In this document: one piece after another, positions 5,726 through 50,790 of the stretch
Layout: each line of letters opens with the position of its first letter
Numbering within the stretch: position 1 is the stretch's first letter
Assembly: GCA_004299275.1 (NCBI GenBank)
Contig: SCSU01000061.1
Location: 1-58,579, forward strand
DNA length: 58,579 nt
From: Patescibacteria group bacterium
GTDB taxonomy: Bacteria; Patescibacteriota; Patescibacteriia; 2-12-FULL-57-11
Direction: 5' to 3'
Notes under the pieces: generated by a model
The model's input: the letters and a program-made list of their open reading frames with translations, nothing else
Databases searched by the model: none
Told to the model about the DNA's origin: nothing
Translations under genes and position numbers: made by a program

Positions 5726-5877
5726 ACCCGGTGGTAGAACGCCGACTCGAACCCCGCTTAAGCGGGGTTCGACGAGCGAACACTTTTTACGACTATTAGC
5801 TTTTGTTCTGGGCTCTGCTTCATTGCCTTGAAGAAACTTTGCTCTAGGAACGCTGTCGGCGTTTCACCACCGGGCAT
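5726..5877 (-). promoter_or_regulatory. nrdJ leader cassette: 20-bp stem joining the uORF start to the nrdJ start, plus an internal 26-nt palindrome
   Basis: Minus-sense CCCGGTGGTGAAACGCCGAC (5874-5855) pairs with GTCGGCGTTCTACCACCGGG (5746-5727). Perfect palindrome TCGAACCCCGCTTAAGCGGGGTTCGA lies at 5747-5772. Confidence 0.6.
5758..5877 (-). CDS. conserved small upstream ORF, 39 aa (MPGGETPTAFLEQSFFKAMKQSPEQKLIVVKSVRSSNPA)
   Basis: Hand translation. Paralogue of the 45-aa uORF at 23793-23930: 22/39 identical residues, 12 of them through synonymous codon differences. Confidence 0.55.
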   Translation of the reverse strand: MPGGETPTAFLEQSFFKAMKQSPEQKLIVVKSVRSSNPA

Positions 5878-5894: not shown

Positions 5895-5950
5895 GATTCG
5901 CCGAAGACTGGTTGGGTTTAAGACGTCAGAGGCAGGGCAAATGCGAACAC

Positions 5951-5981
5951 GAGGTTCGACCTCCTCGGGAGGTCGAACCTC
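5951..5981 (-). terminator. 31-nt palindrome 14 nt downstream of the ileS stop (family B, copy 1 of 2)
   Basis: GAGGTTCGACCTCC-TCG-GGAGGTCGAACCTC, a 14-bp stem. The same element lies 3' of rsmA at 50003-50033. Confidence 0.6.
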
Positions 5982-5994
5982 TGGTGAGCACAGA

Positions 5995-8892
5995 CTAAAC
6001 CTTCTCCAGTCCAATCCAAGCTGTCTCGCCTTGGATTTGCACCTCCGTCGTGTACGGCAGATCGGCGCGGCCGGTCGTTACAGTTTTGGCGCGGACGGCT
6101 TGGCCAAGTTCGGTCTCGACTTTTTTAAATTCGGCGGCAGGCTCGCCAGAAGTTTCGTAAGAGAGATGGATGAAGTCGCTCACGGTGAGTCCGGCACTTT
6201 TTCGGAGCGCCTGGATATGGCGAATCAGCTCGCGCAGAGCGCCGGCGCGTTTGAGTTCCGGCGTTAAAGCCGTATCGAGCGTCACGGAGATTTCCCCGCT
6301 CTTTTTTTGTTCAACGGCGAGAACATTCAGTTCATCGCGGATAATCTCGGCAATTTCATCCGTAAAGGGCGCGCCGGTGAGCACGGCTTTCGCGAGCGGC
6401 TGGCGAGTTGGCATTTTGGCCGCCGACCGCTGTTCCAAGCCGAGCGAGACCACCACCCGCGCTCGCGCCATTTCTTCCAAGAGCTTTTTATCCGACATCT
6501 TTTTTTCAAGTTTGGGCCAATTTTCGAGATGCACTGACTCCATGGAACCTTGGAGTTCGCGGTAAAGCGCCTCGGCGGTAAAGGGCGCGAATGGCGCCAG
6601 CAGTTTGGAAAATTGAAGCAGTGCAAAATGGAGCGTGGCGCTGGCTTGTTTCCCCCCCGCGCCCTTGAACCGCTCGCGGCTGCGGCGGACATACCAAGTG
6701 GAAAGGTCAGTCACAAAGTCAGCGAGCGCTCGCGCCGGCTCGGTGACGCGATATGCTTCGAGGTCGGCTGTGACTTTTTCCGCGAGTTCTGAGAGACGCG
6801 CGAGAATCCAGCGGTCGAGAATGTGACGCGAGGGGATAGTGGATAGTGGATAGTGGATAGAACTGTAAGTTTTGTAGAAGGCGAGCACGTTCCAGAGAAT
6901 CAGGAAAAATTTGCGCTGGAGTTCGGCCAAGTCCTTTTCGTCAAAACGTTTGGCGTCGCCGGGCTGGTTGACCGAGTACATATAGAGCCGCAGGCAGTCG
7001 GCGCCGTATTTCTCAATCATCTGCCAGGGGTCAACCACATTACCTTTGGATTTGGACATTTTTTGCCCCTTGGCATCGAGGAGGTGTCCAAGCGAAATCA
7101 CATTTTTGTAGGGCGCGTCTTTGCCGAGGAGCGCGGCAACGGCGAGCAGGGTATAAAACCAGCCGCGGGTTTGGTCAATCGCCTCGCTGATGTAGTCGGC
7201 GGGAAAAGCTTCGCCGCCATCCACCCGTTTTTTGTTTTCAAACGGATAGTGCCACTCCGCAAAAGGCATGGCGCCGGAATCAAACCAGACGTCAGCGACC
7301 TCTTTGACCCGGCTCATCCAGGCGCCGCATTTTTGGCAGTGGATTTTTAGGGCGTCCACAAAAGGCCGATGGAGGTCAACCGCGCCGCTGTTTTTTGGCA
7401 ACTCGCCGGTCAGTTTTTCCAGTTCTTCAAGCGAGCCGACGCAGAGGCGGTGCTCGCATTTCTCGCATTCCCAAATCGGGAGCGGCGTGCCCCAGTAGCG
7501 CTCGCGGGAAAAAGCCCAGTCCTTGACCGAACGGAGCCACTCGCCAAAGCGGCCTTCCTTTATATATTCCGGCACCCAGTTGATTTGAGCATTGGCGCGA
7601 AGCAGTTTTTCCTGCAGCGCGGTCATCCTAATCCACCACGATTCCTTAGCGTAGTAGAGGAGCGGCGTCCCGCAGCGCCAGCAAAAGGGATAGTCGTGCG
7701 TGTAATCGTAGCTCGCATAGAGCGCGCCGTTTTTTTTCAGACTGGCGATGATTGCCGGATCGGCATCCTTGACGAACTCACCGGCCCAAGGCGTGATCTC
7801 AGGGAGAAACCGGCCATCAGGGTCAACAGTCATCAGCACCGGCAGGTTGTTTCCACGGCCGACGTTGAGGTCATCTTCGCCAAAAGCCGGCGCGATATGG
7901 ACAATGCCCGTGCCTTCTTCGACCGAGACAAAGCTTCCGGCAATCAGCCGGTAAGCGGGCCGGTCGGGTTTAACAAAGGTAAAAAGCGGTTCGTAGCTGA
8001 GGCCAGCGAGCTCGCGGCCCATAACCGAGAAAAGGGTTTTTGAATCGGGGGGGAGGACTTTCTCGGCCAGCGCTTCGGCGACAATCAAAGTTTCTTCGCC
8101 GTTTTTTGCCAGCCGGTAGGTGATGTTCGGCCCGACAGCCAGCGCGACATTGGCCGGGAGTGTCCAAGGGGTCGTGGTCCAAACCAGAAAAAAAGTTTGG
8201 TCGTCGGTCACAATTTCTTTCCCTGACCCTGATTTGATTTTTTGCCCGGCCGCGGCGCGCAGTTTAACGATGACCGACGGCTCGGTGACTTCTTTATAAC
8301 CTAGCGCCACCTCGTGGGAGGAGAGCGCGGTGCCGCAACGGGGGCAATAGGGGACAATTTTGTAGTCTTTGTAGAGCAGTCCTTGGTCCCAGACTTGTTT
8401 GATAATCCACCAAAGCGATTCAATGTAAGGCGTCTCGTAGGTGATGTAGGGGTGCTCCAAGTCCAGCCAAAAACCGATGCGCCTGGTTATTTTGTTCCAA
8501 TCTTCAAGATAAGACCAAACGCTTTTTTTGCATTCGGCGTTGAAAAAGGCGATGGACTCGGCTGGGGTCGCTTTGAGCGATTCAATTTGTTTTTTCCCCG
8601 AGATGCCCAGAGCTTTTTCCACGCCGAGCTCGACCGGCAGGCCGTGGGTGTCCCAGCCGGCTTTGCGTTCCACGCGCCAGCCGGCCATGGTCTTGTAGCG
8701 CGGGAAGAGGTCTTTGAAGGCGCGGGCCTCAACGTGGTGGATGCCCGGCCGTCCGTTCGCGGTCGGCGGGCCCTCAAAAAACACAAAATTGCCGCGGGGA
8801 GATTTTTTTTCCAGCGTTTTTCCAAAAATTTTTTTCTCTTCCCAGAAACGAAGGATTTGTTCTTCCAATTCGGGAAAATTAGGGGCGGGCAT
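5995..8892 (-). CDS. ileS: isoleucine--tRNA ligase
   Basis: 965 aa. PTANGRPGIHH (HIGH-like), KMSKSKGN, class Ia editing and anticodon-binding regions. Confidence 0.95.
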   Translation of the reverse strand: MPAPNFPELEEQILRFWEEKKIFGKTLEKKSPRGNFVFFEGPPTANGRPGIHHVEARAFKDLFPRYKTMAGWRVERKAGWDTHGLPVELGVEKALGISGKKQIESLKATPAESIAFFNAECKKSVWSYLEDWNKITRRIGFWLDLEHPYITYETPYIESLWWIIKQVWDQGLLYKDYKIVPYCPRCGTALSSHEVALGYKEVTEPSVIVKLRAAAGQKIKSGSGKEIVTDDQTFFLVWTTTPWTLPANVALAVGPNITYRLAKNGEETLIVAEALAEKVLPPDSKTLFSVMGRELAGLSYEPLFTFVKPDRPAYRLIAGSFVSVEEGTGIVHIAPAFGEDDLNVGRGNNLPVLMTVDPDGRFLPEITPWAGEFVKDADPAIIASLKKNGALYASYDYTHDYPFCWRCGTPLLYYAKESWWIRMTALQEKLLRANAQINWVPEYIKEGRFGEWLRSVKDWAFSRERYWGTPLPIWECEKCEHRLCVGSLEELEKLTGELPKNSGAVDLHRPFVDALKIHCQKCGAWMSRVKEVADVWFDSGAMPFAEWHYPFENKKRVDGGEAFPADYISEAIDQTRGWFYTLLAVAALLGKDAPYKNVISLGHLLDAKGQKMSKSKGNVVDPWQMIEKYGADCLRLYMYSVNQPGDAKRFDEKDLAELQRKFFLILWNVLAFYKTYSSIHYPLSTIPSRHILDRWILARLSELAEKVTADLEAYRVTEPARALADFVTDLSTWYVRRSRERFKGAGGKQASATLHFALLQFSKLLAPFAPFTAEALYRELQGSMESVHLENWPKLEKKMSDKKLLEEMARARVVVSLGLEQRSAAKMPTRQPLAKAVLTGAPFTDEIAEIIRDELNVLAVEQKKSGEISVTLDTALTPELKRAGALRELIRHIQALRKSAGLTVSDFIHLSYETSGEPAAEFKKVETELGQAVRAKTVTTGRADLPYTTEVQIQGETAWIGLEKV
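6834..6860. repeat. heptamer tandem array (GGATAGT)x~4 inside the ileS coding sequence, in frame
   Basis: Direct reading. Encodes IHYPLSTIP just before the conserved ILDRWIL. Confidence 0.9.
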
Positions 8893-11700: not shown

Positions 11701-12980
11701 CAAGACCCGATCTCCATTGCGCATTAGATAAAAATAAAGTGTTACCGTAGTCGTGTTGGTATTTTGAAAAGTTTTTTAAGAATCGAGTCGCATTTTTGTT
11801 TGAGTACAATCGGGTTCAGTGTAGCATATTTCTGACGCAATCTTTCTTTTGTTTCAGGGTCAATATCCGGATGAGCCAGTACCCGCTGATATACTGTCTG
11901 CGCCGTATCGTACTTGCGCACTTTTCTGGAAAGAATCCGTACTTTCTCAATGCACTTCAAAGACGGAATGAAAAAGTTAATGTAATCTTCCAAAACATCA
12001 TAAAGTTCGTTTAAAATTGCGGCGTGTCGCAGATCGTTAAATCTAGTGTAACCCACGATATGTCTCACATTGGCGTAGTTCTTCTGTTCGATCCTCGCAT
12101 GGTCGTTTTTCATGTAAGGACGGGTGCGGGTCATCTTAATTTTCCGTTCATCGCACCACCCCTTAAGATGCCAATTGATGAATTCTCCTCCGGAATCCGG
12201 ATCAATGCCGCGTAACGGAAAGGGTAAACGTCTTTCAATTCGCTCAATACTGCGCACGGTTTCCATTTCTCCTTTGTTCCACTGCGCCGCCAGCATCGTC
12301 CAGATAGTTGCGACGTCCGTATACTGCACTGTATAGCAAAAATCGCCTGAAATCGTGTATCCGCAATGAGCCACAGTGTCCACCTCGCCCCACCCCGGAG
12401 GAGGATTCTCCCAAGGACCTCTTCGTACCGGAATGATTTCTTTAAGATTGGATGGTTTGGTTGCGCCTCGTCCGCCGCGACGTCTGATGTTCTCAAAATT
12501 AGCAATGCGGTTCTTAATGGTGCCGAGACTCGCCTGAAGCAAGAGACCGGTCGTTTCCTCAGCGTGCTTCCACATCCCGTCTCTCTTCAAAATTCTGATA
12601 TATTCTGGAATTGCCGGGTGCAGACGTTCGGCGCAGATGCGATTGGCGGCTGCCCATATCTCCTTAAGAGCCGCCGCAGTTCGGTGGTCATAGACCTTCT
12701 TCCTCCCGCGGCGTTCTTCGTAGGAGCTAGGGCGAAGATGAAACGTTCGGAACCTCCGGATGGCCGATTTTCGGAATACCTTCGTGATACTACAGACCGC
12801 GTCAAGGATTCGACCCTTTCCTGCTTTATCTGCGGTTAGATACTCCCGCAGTTTTTCCTTAAAAATCTCCTGTTTGGTAGCCATATTCATATACGGCTAC
12901 GGTAACAGGAATTATTATCTAACCGCTCCTGTCTCGGTAACAGTTATTTTTATCTAAAGCGCATTGGAGATCGGGTCTTG
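11701..12980 (-). mobile_element. insertion sequence, ~1,280 bp, ~48-bp imperfect terminal inverted repeats
   Basis: Left end: CAAGACCCGATCTCCATTGCGCATTAGATAAAAATAAAGTGTTACCGTAG. Reverse complement of right end: CAAGACCCGATCTCCAATGCGCTTTAGATAAAAATAACTGTTACCGAG. Single transposase ORF and lower GC. Confidence 0.85.
11742..12890 (-). CDS. DDE (rve/integrase-core type) transposase
   Basis: 382 aa. Candidate catalytic triad in GEVDTVAH ... GIDPDSGGEF ... HARIEQKN. IS family not assigned. Confidence 0.8.
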   Translation of the reverse strand: MNMATKQEIFKEKLREYLTADKAGKGRILDAVCSITKVFRKSAIRRFRTFHLRPSSYEERRGRKKVYDHRTAAALKEIWAAANRICAERLHPAIPEYIRILKRDGMWKHAEETTGLLLQASLGTIKNRIANFENIRRRGGRGATKPSNLKEIIPVRRGPWENPPPGWGEVDTVAHCGYTISGDFCYTVQYTDVATIWTMLAAQWNKGEMETVRSIERIERRLPFPLRGIDPDSGGEFINWHLKGWCDERKIKMTRTRPYMKNDHARIEQKNYANVRHIVGYTRFNDLRHAAILNELYDVLEDYINFFIPSLKCIEKVRILSRKVRKYDTAQTVYQRVLAHPDIDPETKERLRQKYATLNPIVLKQKCDSILKKLFKIPTRLR

Positions 12981-12996: not shown

Positions 12997-13006
12997 AAAG
13001 ATAAGA

Positions 13007-13050
13007 ACAGACCTTGAAGGTCTGTAAAAACGGACCTTCAAGGTCTGTGC
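13007..13050. repeat. GACCTTGAAGGTC double-palindrome module (family C, copy 2 of 3) in the tkt 5' leader
   Basis: ACAGACCTTGAAGGTCTGTAAAAACGGACCTTCAAGGTCTGTGC. Confidence 0.85.
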
Positions 13051-13073
13051 TCGCGATCTATTACCTACCGAGT

Positions 13074-13967: not shown

Positions 13968-15119
13968 ATGCCATTTGGAATAAATCCTAAGGCAAAATTG
14001 GTCAAAAATTTATTCGCCGCGGACATTGAACTCAAACCGACCCGCGATGGCTATGGTTTGGGTTTGGTGGATGCCGGCAAAAAGGACGCCAAGGTGGTCG
14101 TGCTTTGCGCCGACCTTTCCGAATCCACCCGCTCGCATTGGTTTAAAAAAGAATTCCCCGCTCGCTTTGTGCAGATTGGCGTCTCCGAACAGTCCATGGC
14201 CGCGATTGCCTCGGGCTTAGCGCTGGCCGGCAAGGTGCCGTTTATCTCAAGCTACGCCGGTTTTTCCCCGGGCCGGAATTGGGAACAGATTCGGACGACG
14301 ATTACCTTGAACGACGCCAACGTCAAAGTCGCCGGCGCGCACGCCGGGGTCTCGGTCGGTCCGGATGGCGCCACGCACCAGATGACCGAAGACCTCGCGC
14401 TGATGCGTACTCTGCCGAACATGGTAGTTCTCGCGCCGTGCGATATGCAGGAAACCAAAAAGGCCACGGTCGCGGTGGCGGGTGTTTACGGTCCGCACTA
14501 TCTCCGTTTCGGCCGCGAGAAATCGCCGGTGTTCACCACGCCGGCCACACCTTTTAAAATAGGGCGAGCAGAAATTTTCCGTTTCGGCCGCGATGTGACG
14601 ATTGTCGCCTGCGGTATTTTGGTTCACGAGGCGCTCAAGGCGGCGGAGGAACTCCGCAAAAAAGGCATTGAGGCCGAGGTGATTGATTCTCACACGATTA
14701 AGCCGCTGGACGCCAAAACAATTCTCGCTTCAATTGCGAAAACCGGCTGCGTGGTGACAGTGGAAGAGCATCAGGTTGACGGCGGGTTGGGAGCGGCAGT
14801 CGCTGAAGCGCTTGGGGCGGCTCGGCCGGTGCCTTTAGAGCGGATTGGTGTGCAGAATCGTTACGGCGAGTCAGGTGAGCCGATAATGCTCCTCGAGGCC
14901 TTCGGTTTAACTTCGCCTTATATCGCAATGGCCGCGCGACGGGCGACTGCGCGAAAAGCAGGGAAAAAAGTGTCGGAAGTCCCGGATTATATGGCGGCGG
15001 CAGAGCGACGTGCCGTTGAACTAAAAAAACAAGTGATTAGCGAAGCGCTCTCCCGCGCGCCGCGGGAGTGGGGAGGAAAAAAGGGAAACATTAAAGACCT
15101 AATTAAAAAAAGTAAGTAG
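13968..15119 (+). CDS. transketolase, C-terminal (Pyr/C-domain) subunit with ~60-aa basic C-terminal extension
   Basis: FVQIGVSEQSMAAIASGLA...GPDGATHQMTEDLALMRTLPNM. The tail ..KKGNIKDLIKKSK extends beyond the usual length. Confidence 0.85.
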   Translation: MPFGINPKAKLVKNLFAADIELKPTRDGYGLGLVDAGKKDAKVVVLCADLSESTRSHWFKKEFPARFVQIGVSEQSMAAIASGLALAGKVPFISSYAGFSPGRNWEQIRTTITLNDANVKVAGAHAGVSVGPDGATHQMTEDLALMRTLPNMVVLAPCDMQETKKATVAVAGVYGPHYLRFGREKSPVFTTPATPFKIGRAEIFRFGRDVTIVACGILVHEALKAAEELRKKGIEAEVIDSHTIKPLDAKTILASIAKTGCVVTVEEHQVDGGLGAAVAEALGAARPVPLERIGVQNRYGESGEPIMLLEAFGLTSPYIAMAARRATARKAGKKVSEVPDYMAAAERRAVELKKQVISEALSRAPREWGGKKGNIKDLIKKSK

Positions 15120-15136
15120 AACATAGAAGGTAGGCC
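15116..15136. repeat. heptamer array, GTAGAAC family (GTAGAAC ATAGAAG GTAGGCC)
   Basis: Direct reading. Overlaps the tkt-C stop codon. Confidence 0.7.
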
Positions 15137-16138: not shown

Positions 16139-16168
16139 GCGCTTATCGCCTAGCGCTTATCGTTTATG
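16134..16168. repeat. heptamer array, GCTTATC orientation (left arm of four-helix-bundle cassette 1)
   Basis: GCTAAGC GCTTATC GCCTAGC GCTTATC GTTTATG. Spans the kinase stop and the cassette ATG. Confidence 0.85.
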
Positions 16169-16513
16169 TTTAGATTTGAGGGCCTGGAGATCTGGCAACT
16201 AGCAATCAAGTATGCTGAAAAGTTATACTCCGTCTCGCGGGCATTTCCAGATGAGGAACGTTACGCACTTGCTGATCAGCTCCGTCGCGCGGCAATCTCT
16301 ATTTCCAACAATATAGCCGAAGGTTCGGGTGGAACAGATAGAGAATTTCGTAACTTCCTTTCGATGAGTGTCAAGTCAACATTGGAGTGCATTAACATCT
16401 TAATTATTGCAGAACGTCTACGTTATATTTCGAGAGCAACGAAGGATTCTCTCTACGAGGAAGGAGAACGACTTATTCGTAAGATACGAAGTTTTCGCAA
16501 CACTTTTCCATAG
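16166..16513 (+). CDS. four-helix-bundle protein (23S rRNA intervening-sequence protein / Avd-like family)
   Basis: LEIWQLAIKYAEKLYSVSRAFPDEERYALADQLRRAAISISNNIAEG...EFRNFLSMSVKSTLE is the family signature. Confidence 0.85.
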   Translation: MFRFEGLEIWQLAIKYAEKLYSVSRAFPDEERYALADQLRRAAISISNNIAEGSGGTDREFRNFLSMSVKSTLECINILIIAERLRYISRATKDSLYEEGERLIRKIRSFRNTFP

Positions 16514-16527
16514 TAATCCCACGGTCG

Positions 16528-16564
16528 GCGATTAGCGATAAGCTATAAGCGATTAGCGATAAGC
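16528..16564. repeat. heptamer array, GATAAGC orientation (right arm of cassette 1), ends at the fba ATG
   Basis: GCGATTA GCGATAA GCTATAA GCGATTA GCGATAA GC-ATG. Reverse complement of the left-arm units. Confidence 0.85.
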
Positions 16565-17711: not shown

Positions 17712-18704
17712 ATGGCTGGTTTTGACCTCATCACTATCGGCGCGGCGACGATTGACGCTTTTGTCTGGTCCAAGGCCTTCCGTCTGGTTAAAAGCCGCGC
17801 TTTTTCCACTGGCGTGGGCGAGTGCTTGTCGCTCGGTTCAAAAATCGAGATTGATAAGTTCGTGCTAGGGACCGGCGGCGGCGGAACCAACTCGGCCGCG
17901 ACTTTTGCCAATCTCGGTTTTAAAACCGCCTGTTTGACCGCTGTCGGCGATGACCTTTTTGGCCAAGGCGTGCTCGGAGATTTAAAAACGCGCCGGGTGG
18001 CTTCGGTTCTGGTTCAGAGAATCCCCGGCGGACAAACCGCCTTTTCCACAATTTTAGTCGTGCCTTCGGGCGAGCGGACCATACTGGTCTCGCGCGGCGT
18101 GGCCGAGCATCTGTCGGAAAAAATGCTTCCGCGGCGGTTCAGCGCCAAGTGGATTTACATGACCTCGCTCGGCGGCAATTTGAAATTTGGGAGGAAAATT
18201 TTCAGCCAGGCAAAAAAATCCGGGACGAGCATTTTCTGGAACCCGGGCGCCAAAGACCTTGTGCTTGGAGCCGGTCGTCTGAAGCCTTTCTTAAAACAAG
18301 TGGAAGTTTTGGACATGAACCGCGAGGAGGCGATGAAGTTGACCGGTCGGCCTCTTGGAGATTTAGCAGGCATGCTCCGTGACTTAGATAAAATCGGCAG
18401 CCGCTTAGTGCTCCTGACCGACGGGGAGAAGGGCGCCTATCTCTCAGAAGGCGGGCAGTTGTGGCGGGCGCACACCCATCGCCATATCAAAGTGGTTAAT
18501 AAGACCGGCGCGGGTGATGCTTTTGGCAGTGGTTTTCTCGCCGGGCTCATCAAATATCGTGACCGGACGCGGGCGCTCCAGCTCGGGGTCTTGAACTCCG
18601 AGAGCGTCATCCAAAAAATCGGCGCCAAAACCGGACTCCTCACTAATTGGCCAAGCAAAAATAAACTGGCCGGCGTAAAAGTGACCGCCGTCGCTAAAAG
18701 CTAA
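17712..18704 (+). CDS. PfkB-family carbohydrate kinase (second copy)
   Basis: MAGFDLITIGAATIDAFV...NKTGAGDAFGSGFLAGL. Start chosen at ATG 17712; the track start 17694 is also possible. Confidence 0.75.
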   Translation: MAGFDLITIGAATIDAFVWSKAFRLVKSRAFSTGVGECLSLGSKIEIDKFVLGTGGGGTNSAATFANLGFKTACLTAVGDDLFGQGVLGDLKTRRVASVLVQRIPGGQTAFSTILVVPSGERTILVSRGVAEHLSEKMLPRRFSAKWIYMTSLGGNLKFGRKIFSQAKKSGTSIFWNPGAKDLVLGAGRLKPFLKQVEVLDMNREEAMKLTGRPLGDLAGMLRDLDKIGSRLVLLTDGEKGAYLSEGGQLWRAHTHRHIKVVNKTGAGDAFGSGFLAGLIKYRDRTRALQLGVLNSESVIQKIGAKTGLLTNWPSKNKLAGVKVTAVAKS

Positions 18705-18754
18705 TCGCTTAGCGCGTATCGCCGGCGATATGCGATTGGCGATAAGCGATATGC
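18700..18754. repeat. back-to-back inverted heptamer arrays of the GATAAGC family with no cargo
   Basis: GCTAATC GCTTAGC GCGTATC GCC|GGC GATATGC GATTGGC GATAAGC GATATGC. Palindromic about GCCGGC. Confidence 0.8.
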
Positions 18755-18765
18755 AAGCAAAAGGT

Positions 18766-19752
18766 ATGCCCAAGATTTTTATCACCCGACAAATTCCCGA
18801 TGCTGGGATAAAGCTCCTCAAAAAAGCGGGCTACAACGTTTCGATTTACCCCAAGGACGAGATTATCCCGCGGAAAGAATTGCGCCGCGCCGTCAAAGGC
18901 GTTGACGCCTTGCTTCCGTTACTTACCGACCGGATTGACGGCGAAGTAATGGACGCGGCCGGCAAAAAATTAAAGATCATCGCCAATTACGCCGTTGGTT
19001 TTGATAATGTTGATTTAGAAGCCGCCAAAAAACGCGGGATTATTGTTGCCAATACGCCGGCGCCGGAGGTGTCCGAGACCGTGGCGGAGCACACCTTTGC
19101 CCTGATGATTGCTCTCGCTCATCGAATCGCGGAGTCCGACGCTTATGCCCGCGCCGGCAAATATCAGGGCTGGGGGCCGTTGCTCCTCCTTGGTGTTGAT
19201 CTTTACGGGAAGACCTTGGGGATTGTGGGTTTGGGGCGGATCGGCGCGGCCGTGGCCAAGCGCGCGGTTAAGGGTTTTGGCATGCAGGTCGTCTACAGCG
19301 ACCCGCGCAAGAATCCGGATTTTGAAAAAGAATTTAACGCCCGCTATCTGCCGCTTGCCAAACTGTTGGCGGTTTCCGATTTTGTTTCCCTGCACGTGCC
19401 TTTGCTACCTTCCACGCGACACTTGATTTCCACCGCCGAATTCGCTTTGATGAAAAAGACGGCTTATCTTGTAAACACCGCCCGCGGCCCGATTGTGGAC
19501 GAAAAAGCCCTGCTCCGGGCGCTCCGGACCGGGCGCGTCGCCGGCGCCGGGCTGGACGTCTTTGAGTGCGAGCCGGCGATTGACTGCGACCTCACCGACA
19601 AACTGGCGCTTAAAAAATTCGCCAACGTCGTGCTCACCCCGCACACCGCCTCGGCCACGATCGAGGCGCGGCAGGCGATGAGCAAGCTCGCGGCGGAAAA
19701 CATCATCGCGGTACTTTCTGGAAAAAAACCGTTGACTCCAGCGAAGGTGTAG
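18766..19752 (+). CDS. D-isomer-specific 2-hydroxyacid dehydrogenase (glyoxylate/hydroxypyruvate reductase-like)
   Basis: MPKIFITRQIPDAG..., NAD fold GIVGLGRIGAAVAKRA, and TPHTASAT. Start moved to ATG 18766 because the track start lies inside the repeat array. Confidence 0.85.
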   Translation: MPKIFITRQIPDAGIKLLKKAGYNVSIYPKDEIIPRKELRRAVKGVDALLPLLTDRIDGEVMDAAGKKLKIIANYAVGFDNVDLEAAKKRGIIVANTPAPEVSETVAEHTFALMIALAHRIAESDAYARAGKYQGWGPLLLLGVDLYGKTLGIVGLGRIGAAVAKRAVKGFGMQVVYSDPRKNPDFEKEFNARYLPLAKLLAVSDFVSLHVPLLPSTRHLISTAEFALMKKTAYLVNTARGPIVDEKALLRALRTGRVAGAGLDVFECEPAIDCDLTDKLALKKFANVVLTPHTASATIEARQAMSKLAAENIIAVLSGKKPLTPAKV

Positions 19753-19755
19753 GGG

Positions 19756-19783
19756 GTAGTACATAGAACGTAGAACATAGAAA
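19756..19783. repeat. heptamer array, GTAGAAC orientation (left arm of cassette 2)
   Basis: GTAGTAC ATAGAAC GTAGAAC ATAGAAA. Ends 3 nt before the cassette ATG. Confidence 0.85.
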
Positions 19784-19786
19784 TGT

Positions 19787-20191
19787 ATGCGGGTGAGTTC
19801 ATATAAGGATTTGATTGTTTGGCAGAAGGCAATGCAGCTTGTGAAAAAAGTGTATTCTCTAACACAGCTGCTACCCCGGGAGGAGCTGTATGGCCTCGCG
19901 AGTCAAATGAAGCGCGCCGCGGTTTCTGTCCCGTGCAATATCGCAGAGGGATTCAGGCGAAACCACCGGCAAGAGCAAATCCAGTTCTTTGCGGTCTCGT
20001 ATGGCTCGGGTGCTGAACTGGAAACTCAGATTGAGATTTGCAAGCAGCTCGGTTTTGCAAAAGCGGAACAGACCAAGGTCGCAGAGGATATTCTCAATGA
20101 GGTGATGAGGATGCTTAACACATTTTCCATTCCCATGAGCCGACGCCTCCAAGATTCAACTACCAACTACGTTCTACGTTCTACGTTCTGA
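19787..20191 (+). CDS. four-helix-bundle protein (23S rRNA intervening-sequence protein / Avd-like family)
   Basis: LIVWQKAMQLVKKVYSLTQLLPREELYGLASQMKRAAVSVPCNIAEG. The C-terminal TTNYVLRSTF is encoded by the right-arm heptamers. Confidence 0.85.
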   Translation: MRVSSYKDLIVWQKAMQLVKKVYSLTQLLPREELYGLASQMKRAAVSVPCNIAEGFRRNHRQEQIQFFAVSYGSGAELETQIEICKQLGFAKAEQTKVAEDILNEVMRMLNTFSIPMSRRLQDSTTNYVLRSTF

Positions 20192-20194
20192 TAC
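20167..20194. repeat. heptamer array (CTACGTT)x3 + CTGATAC, reverse complement of the GTAGAAC family (right arm of cassette 2)
   Basis: Direct reading. Ends 1 nt before the next ATG (20196). Confidence 0.85.
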
Positions 20195-20195
20195 T

Positions 20196-20675
20196 ATGCA
20201 CATTTTTTCCAAACACTGTTATTGCCGGCGGCAGATTATCCCCTTCCGTTCGACTGAGCATTTTGACGAGCACGCGGTGGCCAGAGTTTTTTGTCCCGAT
20301 TGCGCCGAGCGCGCGCCGGGGGAGGCCTTTGAGGTGGCGGTCGCCGGCATTCCGGGTTGGAGCGGCGTTTACGCCATTGACTGGAACCAGTCTTTTTTGG
20401 AAGAGAAAGACCCGGATTTTCGGGATAGCGAAAATTATTACAAAAAACTTTTTTCTTCCGGCGACGTCACTTTTGGTTTTTTGCCTAAAAATAAGCCGGA
20501 ATTTTTTTACACTTTGTTCGGGATTAGCGAGCGTCTGCCTTCAAAAACTTTGCCGCCAGGACGCGCCGGACGCACTCTTGCGGAAGAAGAGGCGACCGCG
20601 CACGCCCATCGCCACCCGCTCCGCGGCTCGCGGGAAAAAAAACGCCGCCCGCGCGGCTGGGGGAGGAAGGGCTAG
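20196..20675 (+). CDS. hypothetical protein, 159 aa, with CxxC...CxxC and a basic tail
   Basis: ORF flanked by repeat elements. HCYCRR...CPDCAE suggests a zinc-ribbon-like N-terminus. Confidence 0.5.
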   Translation: MHIFSKHCYCRRQIIPFRSTEHFDEHAVARVFCPDCAERAPGEAFEVAVAGIPGWSGVYAIDWNQSFLEEKDPDFRDSENYYKKLFSSGDVTFGFLPKNKPEFFYTLFGISERLPSKTLPPGRAGRTLAEEEATAHAHRHPLRGSREKKRRPRGWGRKG

Positions 20676-23792: not shown

Positions 23793-23930
23793 ATGCCCGG
23801 TAGTGAAACGCCGGCAGCATGCATAGAACAAGGTTTCTTAAGGGCTATAAAACTGAATCAAGAGCAAACGCTCTTAATCGCAAAGAATGTCCGTTCGCCG
23901 AATCCAGCCCCTGTTTCCGGTAATGGGTGA
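23793..23930 (+). CDS. conserved small upstream ORF, 45 aa (MPGSETPAACIEQGFLRAIKLNQEQTLLIAKNVRSPNPAPVSGNG)
   Basis: Hand translation. Paralogue of the nrdJ uORF, with a third-codon-position substitution pattern between the two. Confidence 0.55.
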   Translation: MPGSETPAACIEQGFLRAIKLNQEQTLLIAKNVRSPNPAPVSGNG

Positions 23931-24016
23931 AATTCAAACAAGGTGCAGCATTAAAACAATAATTATTCGCCGACAGAAACAGGGGCTGGGTTCGGAGCCG
24001 GCGTTCTACTACCGGG
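23796..24016 (+). promoter_or_regulatory. valS leader structure: 20-bp closing stem plus inner 14-bp stem
   Basis: CCCGGTAGTGAAACGCCGGC (23796-23815) pairs with GCCGGCGTTCTACTACCGGG (23997-24016). CCAGCCCCTGTTTC (23904-17) pairs with GAAACAGGGGCTGG (23976-89). Confidence 0.6.
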
Positions 24017-24017
24017 T

Positions 24018-26804
24018 ATGACTAAGAAAATTGAACTCCCCAAGTCCTACGCCCCCAAGGACTACGAAGACGCGCTTTACCGCCAATGGGAAAAGAGCGG
24101 GTTTTTTAATCCGGACAAATTGCCCGGCCGGCGTCCGGATTCTTACTGTATTGTGATGCCGCCGCCGAACGTCACCGGCGTTTTGCACATCGGCCACGCG
24201 GTGATGCTCGCGATTGAAGACCTGCTGATTCGTTTTGAGCGCCTGCGCGGGAAAAAAACGCTCTGGCTCCCGGGCACCGACCACGCCGCGATTGCCACCC
24301 AGAACAAGGTGGAAAAGCTCCTTTGGGAGAAGGAAAAGAAAACCCGCCACGCTCTCGGCCGCGAAAAATTTTTGGCGCGGGTTAAAAACTTCGCGCAGGA
24401 GTCGCACGACACGATTGTCACTCAAGTCAAAAAGATGGGCTCCTCCTGCGACTGGTCGCGCGAGGCCTACACTTTGGACGCGCCGCGCGTTCAGGCCGTG
24501 GCCGAGGCCTTCCGGCGATTGCATGAAATGGGACTGATTTACCGCGGCCAGCGGGTTGTTAACTGGTGCCCGCACTGTCAGTCAACGCTCTCTGACGACG
24601 AGGTAGCGTACCGGCCGGCCAAGGAGAAGCTCTATTGGATTAAATACGGACCCTTTGTTTTGGCCACCGCCCGTCCCGAAACCAAACTAGGGGACACCGC
24701 CGTGGCCGTGCACCCCCAAGACCAGCGCTACAAAAAATACGTGGGCCGGCGTTTCAAGATTCCCGGCGTGCTCGGCGAATTTGAAGTCGTGGTCGTGGCT
24801 GACGGGGTAGTGGACAGGGAGTTCGGTTCGGGGATGATTAAGGTTACCCCGGCCCATGATTTTACCGACTTTGAGATCGCGGCGCGCCACGGCGTTCCAA
24901 TGCGTCAAGTAATTGGCGAAGACGGCCGGATGATGGCGAATACCGGCAAATATGCCGGGCTCACCACCGCCGAGGCGCGCGCGGCGATTGTCCGCGACAT
25001 GGAGAAAATGGGTTTGATTGAAAAGATTGAAGAATACGAGCATAACCTCTCGGTCTGCTATCGTTGCGGCACGACGATTGAGCCGTTGCCTAAACTCCAG
25101 TGGTTTATCGCGGTCAATAAACCTTTTACCTTTCGCCAGTCAGCGCGGTCTCCGATTAAAGACATCGGCGACGGCGAAAAAATCACGCTCAAAGAGCTGA
25201 TGAGTCACGTGGTCAAAACTGGCCAGATTCAAATCATCCCCGACCGTTTTGTCAAAACCTATTTCCACTGGATTGACAATCTCCGCGACTGGAACATCTC
25301 GCGTCAGATTTGGTTCGGCCACCGGATCCCAGTTTGGCACCACGATACCTGTCAGATGCTTGGCATCATGGACACAATGCACCAGCCTGACACATGGATG
25401 CGGGATGCTTATGTTATTTTGGATAAACCATTGGATGAGTATGCCGACGACGAGATCGTTTATTGTGGGAAGTGCAAGAACGGTTACACCATCAAAAAGA
25501 TAAAGGAGGGTCATTTTACACAGGATCCGGACACGCTGGACACCTGGTTTTCTTCCGGGCTCTGGACTTTTTCCACGCTCGGCTGGCCGGCGGAGATGGC
25601 GGATTTTAAAAATTATCATCCGACCGCGGTGCTCGAGACTGGTTATGACATTCTTTTCTTTTGGGTGGCGCGGATGATTTTGATGTCGCTCGCGCTGATC
25701 GGCGAGATTCCTTTCAAAACAGTTTATTTGCACGGACTGGTGCGCGACGAGCAGGGGAGGAAGATGAGCAAGTCACTCGGGAACGTGATTGACCCGCTCG
25801 CGGTCGCCGCCAAGTACGGGACTGACGCCGTGCGGCTCTCGCTCGTGCTCGGCACGACGCCCGGGAACGACACCCGGCTCTCGGAAGAAAAAATCGCCGG
25901 CTTCCGCAATTTTACCAACAAGCTGTGGAATATCGGACGGTTCGTGTTGAGCCAAACCTCAATTTCCAAATTCCAAATTCCAAATTCCAAAACTTTGCCC
26001 GACCGCTGGATTCTTTCCCGCTTGTCCGAGGTGACCGAGCGGGTGACGCGGCATCTGGAAAATTATGAATTTTCCGCGGCCGGCGAAATTCTGCGCGATT
26101 TTACCTGGGGCGATTTTGCCGATTGGTACTTGGAAATCAGCAAAGTTCAAAAACAGAGTTCACCCGCGCTCGCCAAAAACACCGATTTAATTCTCCGTCA
26201 CACCCTCGCGGTTCTCCTTAAGCTCTGGCATCCCTTTATGCCTTATGTGACCGAGGTTCTGTGGCGAGAACTTCAAGGAAAAGAGGGCGGTTTGCTTTTG
26301 GTCGCGTCCTGGCCGGCGCCGGGGGCACGGGAGGCGCGAGCCGAGCAAGCGATGAAGAACTGGCAGGAGACGGTCGCCGCGATCCGCAATCTCCGCGCCG
26401 AATACAAGGTGCCGCCGGAGCGGGAAGTTGAGGCCGAAATCGTCAGCGCGCCGGCTGGATTGTCCGAGGAGCTCGCTTGGCTCGAAAAATTGTCTCGGAG
26501 CAAAATCAGCGCTGTTAAAAAAGCTGAGAAAAAAGGCCAGGCGGCCGCGCTCGCCGGCTCCATGGAAATTTATGTTGACCTCGCCGGAGCGGTTGACCGA
26601 GGGCGGGAGTCCGCCCGGCTTCAAAAAGAGCGGGAGAGTTTAGAGAGTTATCTCGCCGCCTTGGAGGCCAAACTAAAAAATAATGACTTTTTGAAACGAG
26701 CGCCGTCGGCGGTGGTGGAAAAGGAAAAAGAAAAAGCCGCGGCGGCGCGCGACAAACTGGCGCGAATCCGCCGCGAGCTCACATCGCTTGGTGCGGACGG
26801 TTGA
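24018..26804 (+). CDS. valS: valine--tRNA ligase
   Basis: 928 aa. PPPNVTGVLHIGHA, KMSKSLGN, and a C-terminal coiled coil. Confidence 0.95.
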   Translation: MTKKIELPKSYAPKDYEDALYRQWEKSGFFNPDKLPGRRPDSYCIVMPPPNVTGVLHIGHAVMLAIEDLLIRFERLRGKKTLWLPGTDHAAIATQNKVEKLLWEKEKKTRHALGREKFLARVKNFAQESHDTIVTQVKKMGSSCDWSREAYTLDAPRVQAVAEAFRRLHEMGLIYRGQRVVNWCPHCQSTLSDDEVAYRPAKEKLYWIKYGPFVLATARPETKLGDTAVAVHPQDQRYKKYVGRRFKIPGVLGEFEVVVVADGVVDREFGSGMIKVTPAHDFTDFEIAARHGVPMRQVIGEDGRMMANTGKYAGLTTAEARAAIVRDMEKMGLIEKIEEYEHNLSVCYRCGTTIEPLPKLQWFIAVNKPFTFRQSARSPIKDIGDGEKITLKELMSHVVKTGQIQIIPDRFVKTYFHWIDNLRDWNISRQIWFGHRIPVWHHDTCQMLGIMDTMHQPDTWMRDAYVILDKPLDEYADDEIVYCGKCKNGYTIKKIKEGHFTQDPDTLDTWFSSGLWTFSTLGWPAEMADFKNYHPTAVLETGYDILFFWVARMILMSLALIGEIPFKTVYLHGLVRDEQGRKMSKSLGNVIDPLAVAAKYGTDAVRLSLVLGTTPGNDTRLSEEKIAGFRNFTNKLWNIGRFVLSQTSISKFQIPNSKTLPDRWILSRLSEVTERVTRHLENYEFSAAGEILRDFTWGDFADWYLEISKVQKQSSPALAKNTDLILRHTLAVLLKLWHPFMPYVTEVLWRELQGKEGGLLLVASWPAPGAREARAEQAMKNWQETVAAIRNLRAEYKVPPEREVEAEIVSAPAGLSEELAWLEKLSRSKISAVKKAEKKGQAAALAGSMEIYVDLAGAVDRGRESARLQKERESLESYLAALEAKLKNNDFLKRAPSAVVEKEKEKAAAARDKLARIRRELTSLGADG
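25964..25991. repeat. heptamer tandem array (TTCCAAA)x4 inside the valS coding sequence, in frame
   Basis: Direct reading. Encodes ISKFQIPNSK just before the conserved LPDRWIL. Confidence 0.9.
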
Positions 26805-29554: not shown

Positions 29555-29631
29555 GTCATCTCGACCAAGGCGGAGAGATCTTCAATTCGACGAAAAAGAG
29601 TTGAAGATCCCTCGGCTCCGCTCGGGATGAC
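29555..29631 (+). repeat. structured repeat, family D (copy 1 of 2), in the argS upstream region
   Basis: GTCATCTCGACCAAGGCGGAGAGATCTTCAATTCG...TTGAAGATCCCTCGGCTCCGCTCGGGATGAC. A second copy lies at 50791-50895. Confidence 0.8.
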
Positions 29632-31811: not shown

Positions 31812-32267
31812 ATGTTTAAACAGCGTTTAGAGGGCGGCGCCGGCGACACCGTCATCGCCGGCGGGGTCAAGGTCGAAGGTGATTTTGTGAGCGAGGGCAA
31901 TGTGATTATCGAAGGCGAAGTGGTCGGGAGTCTCCGGACCGCGCGCGACCTGCAGGTCGGCGACGCGGCCAAGATCCACGCCGACGTGGCGGCGACCAAC
32001 GCCCGCGTTGCCGGCGAGGTGCGGGGCAATGTCGTCATCAAAGAAAAACTGGAGCTGGCTTCGTCCTCGCGAATTTTCGGAGACGTTCAGGCTAAGATTT
32101 TAACGGTTGAGGCCGGCGCGCAGTTGAACGGCAAAATTCATATGGGGGAAGCGCCCGCCGAGGCGACGAGCAAGAGCGAACGCAATCACGCGGAACGGAC
32201 TACGGCTGGCGGTCTCTCGGCGCTCGTCGGCAACCGCGTCAAGGCAGAGAAGGCCAGCGCAAATTAG
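31812..32267 (+). CDS. bactofilin-family cytoskeletal protein
   Basis: Beta-helical repeats: VIAGGVKVEGDFVSEGNVIIEGEVVGSL...VAGEVRGNVVIKEKLEL... Confidence 0.85.
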   Translation: MFKQRLEGGAGDTVIAGGVKVEGDFVSEGNVIIEGEVVGSLRTARDLQVGDAAKIHADVAATNARVAGEVRGNVVIKEKLELASSSRIFGDVQAKILTVEAGAQLNGKIHMGEAPAEATSKSERNHAERTTAGGLSALVGNRVKAEKASAN

Positions 32268-32339
32268 TTAATAGCTATAGTTTATAGCTATAGGTCTTTA
32301 AAAAATTTCTCGCTATTCACTATAGCTATATACTTTTTT

Positions 32340-33110
32340 GTGTACCACTATATCTACGACAACTTTCTTTCCGACAAGCGGCAGGCCAAGACGCTGGCGG
32401 AGCTCGAAAACCGGCTGACTGATTTGGGCATTCAGGGGCGGGTTGACCGCCTCCATCCTTTCAAAAGTCTGCGCGAGGCGATTGACGAGGGCCTCCGGCG
32501 CGGCACTAAGACTTTGGTTGCCGTCGGCAACGACGAAACTTTCAAAAAAATTTTGGATGTGGCGGCGGGCATGGGCGTGACTGTCGGTTATGTCCCGCTC
32601 GCGCCCGAGAGCGCCTTTGCCGAGCTTTTGGGCATCCCGCTCGGAGTCGCGGCTTGCGACATCCTCGCCGCCCGACTGACCGAAAAGCTTGATGTCGGCC
32701 GAGTCAACGGGCAATATTTTTTGGCCGCGGTTTCCTTTGACGCCAAAAACGTTAAGTTGGAATGCGAGGGGCGGTTTCGGCTGGAGCTCGTCGCCGGCGG
32801 ACGGGTTTCCATTATGAACATCGCGGCCGTGGAGCGGGACGCCCCGGAACACGTGGCCAATCCTTTTGACGGCCTGCTCGAAGCGGTGCTCGAGCCCGCG
32901 GCCGCCGGTCCTCGGCCGTTTCGCGGCCGGGCAGTGCCGAGCGTTTTACCGATTAAACGCGTGGTGGCGCGTTCGCCAGAGGCATTTTCGCTTTACTCCG
33001 ACGGCCGCGAGCTCAAGAGCCAGAACGCGGAGATTGATTTGGCCAAAGAAAAACTCAAGGTGATTATCGGCAAGTCGCGGCTGTTCGCGGCGATGGCCGG
33101 CGGCGGATAG
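32340..33110 (+). CDS. diacylglycerol/lipid kinase catalytic-domain protein (YegS-like)
   Basis: GTG start. The TLVAVGNDETF block resembles the DAGK_cat GGDGT region (degenerate). Confidence 0.6.
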   Translation: MYHYIYDNFLSDKRQAKTLAELENRLTDLGIQGRVDRLHPFKSLREAIDEGLRRGTKTLVAVGNDETFKKILDVAAGMGVTVGYVPLAPESAFAELLGIPLGVAACDILAARLTEKLDVGRVNGQYFLAAVSFDAKNVKLECEGRFRLELVAGGRVSIMNIAAVERDAPEHVANPFDGLLEAVLEPAAAGPRPFRGRAVPSVLPIKRVVARSPEAFSLYSDGRELKSQNAEIDLAKEKLKVIIGKSRLFAAMAGGG

Positions 33111-40842: not shown

Positions 40843-40876
40843 AAGTAGTTAGTACGTAGAACACAGAACATAGAAA
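40839..40876. repeat. heptamer array, GTAGAAC family
   Basis: ATAGAAG TAGTTAG TAC GTAGAAC ACAGAAC ATAGAAA. Ends 5 nt before ATG 40882. Confidence 0.75.
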
Positions 40877-42537: not shown

Positions 42538-44169
<1,632 letters not shown>

Positions 44170-44179
44170 AAAAGAGTAC

Positions 44180-44207
44180 GTAGAACGTAGAACATAGAAC
44201 TAAACAC
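44180..44207. repeat. heptamer array, GTAGAAC family
   Basis: GTAGAAC GTAGAAC ATAGAAC TAAACAC, starting 11 nt after the groEL stop. Confidence 0.8.
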
Positions 44208-46179: not shown

Positions 46180-47100
46180 ATGAGAATTCTAGTGACCGGT
46201 GGTGCAGGTTTCATCGGTTCCCACGTGGTGGATGCGCTCGTCTCTCGCGGACACAAAGTAACCGTGCTCGATGACCTCTCCACTGGCAAGCGGGAGAACT
46301 TGAACCGCCAAGCGGCCTTCGTCAAAGGCAAGGTTGAGACCCTCGCGGCCGAACGGCTGGTGCGCCGGCTCCGTCCCGAGGCGATTTTTAACTTCGCCGC
46401 GCAAAAGGATGTCCGTTTTTCTGTCAGCCGTCCGGCTGAAGACGCGCTCATTAACGTCGTCGGTCTGCTCCGCTTGGTCCAAGGCGCGCTGCCTCATGGC
46501 CTCAAACGGTTGGTGCTGGCTTCGACCGGCGGCGCGATTTACGGCGGCGCAAAAAAATTGCCGACGCCGGAAGATTATCCCGCTCATCCGTTTTCGCCCT
46601 ACGGCGTCTCTAAACTTGCGAGCGAGCTTTATCTCCACTCTTACCGGCACGCCGGCGGCTTGCCCGCGGTCTCGCTCCGTTTCGCCAATGTCTACGGCCC
46701 GCGCCAAGACCCGAAGAGCGAGGCCGGCGTGGTCGCCATTTTTGCCCGCCGACTGCTCCGCGGCCAGCGGCCGGTGATTACGGGCGACGGGGAGCAGTCC
46801 CGGGACTTTGTCTACATTGACGATGTCGTGCGGGCTTGCCTCGCCGCTTTGACGACGAAACATCTCGGCGTTTACAACATCGGCACCGGGGTGGAAACAA
46901 ACATCAATGAACTGGCGCGGATGCTGAATTTACTTGTTGGCAGCGAGCTCCAGCCGGTTTACGCTCCGGCAGTAGCGGGGGAAGAGCGCCGAAGCGCTCT
47001 AGCGATTGGACTGGCTAAGAAATTTCTTGGCTGGAAGCCGCGAGTGGCGCTGGCTCAGGGACTGGCCAAGACGATTGAGTGGCAGATAGCGCGTAGCTAA
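46180..47100 (+). CDS. NAD-dependent epimerase/dehydratase (UDP-glucose 4-epimerase-like)
   Basis: ILVTGGAGFIGSH and YGVSK catalytic motifs. 306 aa. Confidence 0.85.
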   Translation: MRILVTGGAGFIGSHVVDALVSRGHKVTVLDDLSTGKRENLNRQAAFVKGKVETLAAERLVRRLRPEAIFNFAAQKDVRFSVSRPAEDALINVVGLLRLVQGALPHGLKRLVLASTGGAIYGGAKKLPTPEDYPAHPFSPYGVSKLASELYLHSYRHAGGLPAVSLRFANVYGPRQDPKSEAGVVAIFARRLLRGQRPVITGDGEQSRDFVYIDDVVRACLAALTTKHLGVYNIGTGVETNINELARMLNLLVGSELQPVYAPAVAGEERRSALAIGLAKKFLGWKPRVALAQGLAKTIEWQIARS

Positions 47101-47178: not shown

Positions 47179-47183
47179 GAATA

Positions 47184-50787: not shown

Positions 50788-50790
50788 TTC

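Follow-up and report, generated by a model that had tools for sequence, protein, structure and literature searches.

Intervening sequences (IVSs) that carry an open reading frame (ORF) of the S23p/PF05635 family within terminal inverted repeats are known from the 23S rRNA of Coxiella burnetii, Leptospira and Brucella; the sites of such IVSs in the 23S rRNA gene are helices 25 and 45. The Coxiella IVS is a 428-nt insertion in helix 45 of the 23S rRNA with an S23p ORF, and its terminal repeats form a 28-bp stem that is cleaved by RNase III in vitro; three GACAGAT heptamers and a degenerate fourth one stand directly before the ATG, the first of them being the RNase III site, and strains have either two or three GACAGAT copies (PMC4990558). 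The present analysis concerns a module of about 440 bp (439 nt), here named cassette 2, in a contig of a Patescibacteria group bacterium (SCSU01000061.1; the whole analysed stretch of 58,579 nt is referred to as the window). It consists of a four-helix-bundle (4HB) gene placed between inverted arrays of heptamers. The anatomy of the IVS (an ORF, inverted tandem heptamers and a stem of ~28–35 bp) is a general cis-architecture of the 4HB family across phyla, and we are somewhat inclined to regard cassette 2 itself as an IVS-type hairpin cassette in the spacer of an mRNA operon.

PF05635/TIGR02436 is a very large family without a known function (a single query returned ~8000 relatives), which is discussed almost only in connection with 23S rRNA IVSs. 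In the Candidate Phyla Radiation (CPR, Patescibacteria), a few 4HB ORFs have been reported within insertions of 16S and 23S rRNA, and the protein was called uncharacterised. A literature search, with subscription papers outside its scope, returned no account of non-rRNA 4HB cassettes with inverted heptamers, and a prior description is possible. Heptamer repeats are also found in intergenic regions, the short tandemly repeated repetitive (STRR) heptamers of cyanobacteria being an example. Similar direct repeats of TAACTGA were described from Beggiatoaceae, cyanobacteria and Bacteroidetes (MacGregor 2015, PMC4679880). Like the arrays of the window, the TAACTGA and STRR repeats are tandem heptamers in 2–6 copies that share the orientation of the gene downstream; they frequently stop 1–5 nt short of a start codon, where they replace the Shine-Dalgarno sequence (as do the window arrays at 40849, 16527 and 47183), and their taxa overlap with those rich in PF05635. 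On the other hand, the TAACTGA work deals with direct repeats and one 'indirect' set only, and a word search of that paper found no link to 4HB genes or inverted pairs. The architecture described below joins three loose ends: the rRNA IVSs, the unexplained heptamer repeats of intergenic regions, and the question of what the 4HB family does.

Cassette 2 and its likeness to rRNA intervening sequences

The junction occupied by cassette 2 consists of the following features:

18730–19752, plus strand: upstream host gene, D-2-hydroxyacid dehydrogenase (Pfam PF02826/PF00389; orthologues in the syntenic loci L083 and L084)
19756–19783, plus strand: left arm of cassette 2, four heptamers, GTAGTAC ATAGAAC GTAGAAC ATAGAAA
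19787–20191, plus strand: 4HB gene of cassette 2, 134 aa (matches PF05635, TIGR02436 and PDB 2GSC)
20160–20194, plus strand: right arm of cassette 2, CTACCAA CTACGTT CTACGTT CTACGTT CTGATAC, reverse complement of the left-arm units
20196–20675, plus strand: downstream host gene, 159 aa, without a Pfam family, its ATG 4 nt past the 4HB stop

The core observation of the sequence-only reading, a 4HB gene between inverted heptamer arms, was confirmed. The dehydrogenase, the true start of which is likely to be at 18766, ends with a TAG stop codon (19750–19752), followed by GGG, the left arm, TGT and the ATG at 19787; the gap of 3 nt between arm and start codon is as that reading had given it. Each heptamer of the left arm contains a TAG, which places stops in all three frames, and the dehydrogenase stop shares the same 7-nt register, resulting in five UAGs exactly 7 nt apart. 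On its own, the left arm is predicted to be unstructured (−1.6 kcal/mol). The right arm has a core of three CTACGTT units and CTGATAC (20167–20194), the part recognised before, and can be extended by a degenerate unit, CTACCAA (20160–20166). It encodes the final 8 codons and the stop (TGA, 20189–20191) of the 134-aa ORF; a single nucleotide separates its end from the next ATG (20196). The 159-aa ORF that starts there has two N-terminal Cys pairs (CYC ... CPDC) and no Pfam or NCBIfam match; conserved counterparts (54% identity) are found in synteny in L083 and L084.

Based on the Rfam search, the window contains no rRNA, which places cassette 2 outside a 23S rRNA gene, and the arms are covered by no Rfam family. 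PADLOC defence-system models gave no match to the locus and no phage match was found. Nothing in the promoter/terminator scan exceeded the shuffle expectation; its sole match within a cassette was a weak terminator-like hairpin in the left arm of cassette 1, the second 4HB cassette of the window.

The product of the cassette-2 ORF belongs to PF05635 (E-value, 2.8 × 10−37; 127.6 bits, with a cut-off of 33.8; match to positions 1–105 of the 106 in the profile) and to TIGR02436, 'four helix bundle protein' (114.1 bits; cut-off, 24), and the cassette-1 ORF scored 98.1 bits in the 4HB profile search. A relative with a solved structure is 2GSC_A (X. campestris XCC0516; E-value, 1.2 × 10−21), which was reported to be a homopentameric toroid (Lin 2006, as quoted in PMC4990558). 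The closest database relatives are 'four helix bundle proteins' of CPR bacteria, the best non-self match being 68% identical. Alignment of these proteins revealed that conservation is limited to residues ~1–113, and the C-terminal tail, encoded in part by the right arm, is unconserved. For annotation, such C-terminal tails and the missing Shine-Dalgarno sequences of neighbouring genes can be read as by-products of the arms.

What the sequence-only reading missed is the match of this arrangement to the known anatomy of 23S rRNA IVSs. In addition to the published cases, the IVS of Azospirillum lipoferum AZO_p2 was examined here. In this plasmid-borne rRNA operon, a 4HB ORF lies inside the large-subunit rRNA, flanked by arms of 36 nt with five inverted heptamers (AGAGGAC GGATGAC AGAGGAC GGAGGAC AGAAAGG versus CCGTCCT CTGTCTT CTGTCAT CCGTCTT), and the whole insertion spans 469 nt with a predicted long terminal stem. 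The IVSs and the window cassettes have in common the protein family, an ORF within terminal inverted repeats, a predicted stem of ~28–36 bp, and a 5' arm of 3–5 tandem heptamers right before the ATG. Their sizes are also alike (439 and 427 nt for the two cassettes, 428 nt in Coxiella, 469 nt in Azospirillum). In view of the matching anatomy and sizes, the two window cassettes are therefore best read as IVS-type modules outside rRNA.

There are also differences. Cassette 2 is located between protein genes of an operon for sugar metabolism and not in rRNA, and all 80 of the sampled homologous loci are likewise outside rRNA. Its ORF is intact and under strong purifying selection in related lineages, whereas the Coxiella ORF was described as decaying and probably untranslated. 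Unlike in the IVSs, the end of the cassette-2 ORF is embedded in the right arm and directly adjoins the start codon of the following gene. Finally, RNase III cleavage was demonstrated for rRNA IVSs, and may apply to the cassettes by analogy.

Inverted heptamer arms across the family

The homologue sample comprised 80 loci fetched from one-genome-per-species contigs; most of them are from CPR bacteria, and the others span Bacteroides, Prevotella, Clostridia, Treponema, Kiritimatiellae and Sedimentisphaerales. Inverted arms were scored without gaps at a threshold of ≥12, for which 76 loci were usable, and locus-specific inverted arms were found in 64 of them (median arm, 27 nt). When a stricter mismatch penalty was applied, 59% of the loci exceeded the 95th percentile of permuted locus pairs, in comparison with 4% of the permuted pairs. 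In nearly all loci, short tandem repeats precede the ATG and their reverse complement is found around or after the stop, the unit varying from locus to locus (TAGCCAC, TAGCTTG, TAGGGTA, CAGTGGA and others). The interval between successive upstream TAGs was 7 nt in 114 cases, 8 nt in 44 and 9 nt in 10, and the number of units per array peaks at 4–5 and falls sharply at 6, alike upstream and downstream of the gene. The proposal of the sequence-only reading that the inverted architecture is itself the functional feature thus gained support from the family at large, from the conservation of arms between related loci (see below), and from the rRNA IVS of Azospirillum, which has the same design.

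None of the 80 homologous loci lies inside rRNA. A co-directional ORF ends within 100 nt upstream of the 4HB gene in 66 of 79 loci, and one starts within 100 nt downstream in 64 of 79; given that the median gaps to these neighbours are 40 and 33 nt, respectively, the arms fill the spacers. IVSs of 23S rRNA were already known; the present sample shows the same anatomy as a rule for the 4HB family outside rRNA, usually between co-directional genes, including those of a ribosomal-protein operon. In that operon (L163–L172; e.g., L163 2474–2920), a 4HB cassette with TAGCTTT-type arms lies between rplR (L18) and rpsE (S5), is identical in 20 metagenome contigs, and uses the stop codon of L18 as its first left-arm TAG.

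Stop triplets are more numerous in the left than in the right arm in 41 loci and less numerous in 6 (p = 2 × 10−7), and this polarity tracks the direction of transcription; in 37 of the 64 left arms, none of the three frames is free of stops. Protein identity is higher where the arms share heptamers (63%) than elsewhere (54%; p = 4 × 10−14). Additional copies of a locus's own arm within ±3 kb were found in 6 of 56 loci in other genomes and in 13 of 280 controls, a difference too weak to use.

The same arrangement is found at a 4HB locus of Nostoc punctiforme, with GGGTGTG and CACACCC arms. With Bacteroides and Nostoc as tractable carriers, an old puzzle becomes experimentally approachable. In Nostoc sp. 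PCC 7120, the same 4HB protein (WP_010994075.1) is encoded on plasmids alpha and gamma (L184 1498–1848; L185 1504–1854), where transposase genes adjoin it; a CCCTCTG-type array lies downstream and there is no clear left arm. In a contig labelled Saccharibacteria, a group I intron (RF00028, 87.5 bits; L021 3421–3616) is located directly downstream of a 4HB cassette.

Pairing, insertion and the hairpin model weighed

Evaluation of the arms requires the other cassette and the related arrays of the window:

16139–16564, plus strand: cassette 1, between pfkB and fructose-bisphosphate aldolase, about 427 nt
16139–16162, plus strand: left arm of cassette 1, GCGATAA-type
16166–16513, plus strand: 4HB ORF of cassette 1, 115 aa (4HB profile match)
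16527–16564, plus strand: right arm of cassette 1, GCGATWA units, inverted relative to the left arm
15116–15136, plus strand: solo GTAGAAC-family array between transketolase-C and pfkB1
40849–40876, plus strand: solo array of the GTAGAAC family, its end 5 nt upstream of the ATG (40882) of a Wzy_C-type gene
44173–44200, plus strand: solo GTAGAAC-family array directly after the stop of ORF 42541–44169
50750–50784, plus strand: solo array, two GTGAGTA units followed by GTAGAAC-family units
18700–18751, plus strand: ORF-less hairpin at the pfkB2-dehydrogenase junction, made of inverted heptamer arrays that belong to the cassette-1 family (fold z-score, −2.5)
32257–32343, plus strand: intergenic ORF-less hairpin with TAGCTATAG-type repeats (fold z-score, −6.8)

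The duplex of the cassette-2 arms has a calculated energy of −29.3 kcal/mol, a value reached by none of 1000 shuffles and matched by 6% of random GC-rich segment pairs of the window. In a 461-nt RNA containing cassette 2, the arm–arm stem encloses the ORF in both the minimum-energy and the centroid folds, and an ORF-closing stem is likewise predicted for cassette 1. Cross-pairing between the arms of the two cassettes yields just −6.4 and −6.8 kcal/mol. The two 4HB proteins are 31% identical, and the earlier statement that two paralogous genes have unrelated arms (GCGATAA-type and GTAGAAC) was borne out.

GTAGAAC occurs 12 times in the window (3.1 expected), and the 21-mer family pattern has 12 matches and none in shuffles. 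All but one of the GTAGAAC-family arrays are on the plus strand, as the sequence-only reading had noted for the solo arrays, and the sole minus-strand copy is the right arm of cassette 2. The same reading also required, by its own standard of refutation, that the complementarity of the two arms exceed what is expected for random arrays of this family, and this part did not stand: any plus-strand array pairs equally well with the right arm, the solo arrays giving −23 to −40.7 kcal/mol, as good as or better than the cognate left arm. What is special in cassette 2 is therefore the placement and orientation of a single inverted copy, not extra complementarity.

The gene order transketolase-pfkB-fba-pfkB-dehydrogenase-orf159 is kept in metagenome contigs, which allowed a comparison of the junctions. 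Neither junction is occupied in L084 (71% aldolase identity), where the sequence reads TGAcATG at the position of cassette 1 and TAGctATG at that of cassette 2; the hairpin at 18700–18751 is also absent there. In L083, the closest relative (83% identity), palindromic elements (...cattgcgagcgaagcgaagcaatc...) occupy the cassette-1 and pfkB2-dehydrogenase junctions (5905–5995 and 8285–8355), and a 303-aa membrane-protein gene is found at the cassette-2 junction instead. The palindromic element of L083 differs from the GTCATCTCGACCAAGGYGGAGAGATCT element of the window, as well as from its cassette and hairpin elements. Thus, the same operon junctions collect different hairpin insertions depending on the lineage. 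No 4HB gene was found when 80 syntenic loci (586 kb) were searched with a hidden Markov model, and the cassettes therefore either are insertions specific to this lineage or were lost elsewhere. In this respect the term cassette, used by the sequence-only reading, is apt, and the conserved architecture and the cassette character are the parts of that reading which held. Its further suggestion, that relatives may have cassettes where the window has solo arrays, gained no support, and neither did extra complementarity; no cassette was found in any of the 80 syntenic loci at the transketolase-pfkB junction (15116), the only site that could be checked.

Both the ORF and the arms are under selection. 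In the related pair L043/L044, the ratio of nonsynonymous to synonymous substitution rates (dN/dS) of the ORF is 0.05, indicating purifying selection, and the arms are 83% and 94% identical in comparison with 62.5% at the 4-fold degenerate sites of the ORF. The arm sequences are thus cassette-specific yet under selection. The number of repeats also changes. Downstream of an identical 4HB gene (L173–L182), CCTCCTAA is present nine times in most contigs and three times in one (L173 2888–2962; L176 639–665), and it follows that arms change by repeat slippage, as in Coxiella, where the heptamer number likewise varies between strains. The CCTCCTAA unit is similar to the anti-Shine-Dalgarno sequence, and its array extends as far as the start codon of ruvA. 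No variation in arm copy number was seen between L001 and L002, two near-identical contigs of the source organism.

According to the hairpin model, which we find slightly more convincing than its alternatives combined, the operon would be transcribed through the cassette and the arms of the transcript would pair into a stem of 28–35 bp, with the 4HB ORF in the loop. RNase III would cut this stem as in rRNA IVSs, freeing the 4HB mRNA and separating the flanking cistrons. The stop-rich left arm begins at the upstream stop, and the ORF enters the right arm and ends 4 nt before the next ATG; by this geometry, the insertion would terminate and re-couple translation without polar damage. The arms would evolve by repeat slippage and be kept different between cassettes, so that a left arm would pair only with its own right arm and the stems would be orthogonal. 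The ORF-less hairpins at 18700–18751 and 32257–32343 are analogous to ORF-less IVSs.

Several observations weigh against this model. The fold z-scores of the whole cassettes are modest (−2.4 and −1.4). Arm mismatches in the 64 pairs comprise 59 A–C and 50 G–T, and the duplexes of the sense strand are no more or less stable than those of the antisense strand (p = 0.58); there is thus no strand-specific wobble signal, and pairing of RNA is not distinguished from symmetry at the DNA level. The model leaves unexplained the solo arrays, which are unstructured alone, and the arrays inside genes, and it assigns no role to the 4HB protein, which is under purifying selection.

An explanation in which the protein does have a role is that 4HB proteins are oligomeric (pentameric) nucleic-acid binders which read their own heptamer arrays and autoregulate via the stem, the solo arrays being their regulon; we regard it as unlikely. 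Binding to the single-stranded (UAGNNNN)4–5 left arm would open or block the stem, and the inverted arms would primarily be protein sites. The reasons to keep this explanation in play are the solo arrays and the selected protein, for which the hairpin model does not account, the 7-nt periodicity of UAG, the mode of 4–5 units with its drop at 6 on both sides, and the homologue 2GSC, reported as homopentameric in the quotation of Lin 2006. Moreover, both arm families have extra copies in the window, and the solo GTAGAAC arrays, unstructured as they are, keep unit order and orientation. A related case is the HutP hexamer, which recognises repeats of UAG-N4 and melts a stem of the RNA (PMC2425495). 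The HutP and TRAP rings read (U/G)AG repeats with fixed spacers, and the left arm of the cassette offers UAG at a 7-nt spacing as one half of a predicted stem, yet their fold is unrelated to PF05635 and the likeness is an analogy only. Nearer in fold is Avd, the accessory protein of diversity-generating retroelements (DGRs; PF22296/NF033474), which belongs to the same four-helix-bundle superfamily and gave weak profile matches here. Avd is a pentamer that binds nucleic acid. Binding by family members outside DGRs would be assumed by analogy, and many arms lack TAG altogether, e.g., those of Bacteroides, Azospirillum and Coxiella. The higher protein identity of loci that share heptamers fits arm reading, but common descent predicts it equally well. 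Heptamer arrays are more dense in the window (0.15/kb) and in the homologous loci outside cassettes (0.068/kb) than in the 586 kb of syntenic loci without a 4HB gene (0.012/kb); this ~6–13-fold difference in favour of 4HB-bearing genomes is suggestive, the comparison being unmatched for base composition. On the other hand, at least nine heptamer families are found in the window and only two 4HB genes (58 kb of the genome covered). The more specific claim that PF05635 proteins are ring-shaped, sequence-specific readers of tandem repeats, each paralogue opening its own stem and also acting on solo arrays, is more doubtful still. Were arm reading real, a post-transcriptional network would be widespread, with the intergenic heptamers of CPR bacteria, Bacteroidota, Beggiatoaceae and cyanobacteria (STRR) as its cis-sites and the rRNA IVS as a special case.

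Identity of the cassette proteins with Avd itself was considered and rejected, the scores (29.5 bits for NF033474, cut-off 80; 26.3 bits for PF22296, cut-off 40) lying below both cut-offs. The genes flanking the two cassettes are metabolic or, in one case, a family-less ORF; no reverse transcriptase, template or variable repeat was noticed beside the cassettes, no systematic search having been made. An integron cassette and a toxin–antitoxin module were dropped likewise, as no integrase, attC or partner gene was noticed there, again without a systematic search.

It is also improbable, to about the same degree as protein reading of the arms, that the cassettes are DNA-level mobile elements, with arms serving as terminal inverted repeats or hairpin ends for a recombinase acting in trans or for the 4HB protein, and with solo arrays and ORF-less hairpins being target sites or excision footprints. 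The presence or absence of insertions at both junctions relative to syntenic relatives, with other palindromic insertions in L083, agrees with mobility, as do the ORF-less hairpins of the same repeat type, the patchy phyletic spread, the occurrence on cyanobacterial plasmids (the identical protein on two plasmids of Nostoc PCC 7120 included), and the transposition origin long proposed in the IVS literature. Similarly, elements of the miniature inverted-repeat transposable element (MITE) and repetitive extragenic palindromic (REP) type are short hairpin insertions at gene junctions and include ORF-less versions. In contrast to these, the cassettes have arms of tandem heptamers with cassette-specific sequence. 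No target-site duplication was found at either cassette when the flanks (TAGGGG|...|TATG and GGCTAA|...|ATGCTG) were compared with the empty sites of L084, and neither the cassettes nor their immediate neighbourhood contain a transposase. Near-identical copies are likewise missing (identity is 31% between the two cassettes and 68% with the best outside homologue, with 58 kb covered), and in these respects the cassettes differ from insertion sequences and MITEs. Recent mobility was rejected as well, as identical 4HB proteins in CPR metagenomes, found on 20 and 21 contigs, always have a single genomic context. From the single context of identical proteins and the missing target-site duplications, no ongoing cut-or-copy transposition is seen. 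Furthermore, no junction in the 80 syntenic loci holds a 4HB gene, and the polarity of the arms with transcription is unexpected for plain terminal repeats.

That heptamer arrays are a generic slippage-prone spacer filler, an opposite pair of which flanks a small gene by chance, is very improbable: the window is indeed rich in arrays of many families, mostly without a 4HB gene nearby, and arm complementarity characterises the heptamer family as a whole rather than the pair, but the position of the sole minus-strand GTAGAAC-family array coincides exactly with the far end of the 4HB gene, the other 4HB gene of the window is flanked in the same way by unrelated units, the arrangement recurs in 64 of 76 homologues, and the arms are conserved above 4-fold sites.

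Other repeats of the window

Period-7 repeats are enriched in the window, with 9 strict arrays and none at periods 8–11 or in shuffles. Apart from the solo array at 40849, heptamer arrays that abut a start codon end at the ATGs at 16565, 37292, 39907 and 47243. Some arrays lie inside genes: CAAATTC is repeated 4.6 times (25960–25991) where the valyl-tRNA synthetase gene encodes the linker that joins the catalytic domain to the anticodon-binding domain, and TTCCCTA, CCCTAGA and CGCCAAG arrays (49308–49340, 49530–49561 and 49830–49858, respectively) are found within an RsmA/KsgA methyltransferase gene.

Several other repeats were observed. The palindromic element (GTCATCTCGACCAAGGYGGAGAGATCT...) occurs at least twice (29555–29631 and ~50787–50840), once right behind a solo heptamer array. 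A tandem pair of ACAGACCTTGAAGGTCTGT hairpins is present at two sites (13004–13051 and 49134–49179), and 23-nt inverted arms (ATRCCCGGTRGTRRAACGCCGRC) surround 108–181 nt at two others (5724–5877 and 23793–24019). The region 11701–12980 has 37-nt terminal inverted repeats (95% complementary) around a 382-aa ORF (11742–12890, minus strand) with a weak match to rve/DDE integrases, and is probably an insertion sequence. An array related to cassette 1 is located at the stop codon of an epimerase gene (47098–47118, minus strand), and a long AATAGCG-type array (47183–47242, plus strand) extends up to the ATG of a Sua5/TsaC gene. The two are separated by a structured spacer of ~60 nt (fold z-score, −3.7), which may represent another small hairpin element.

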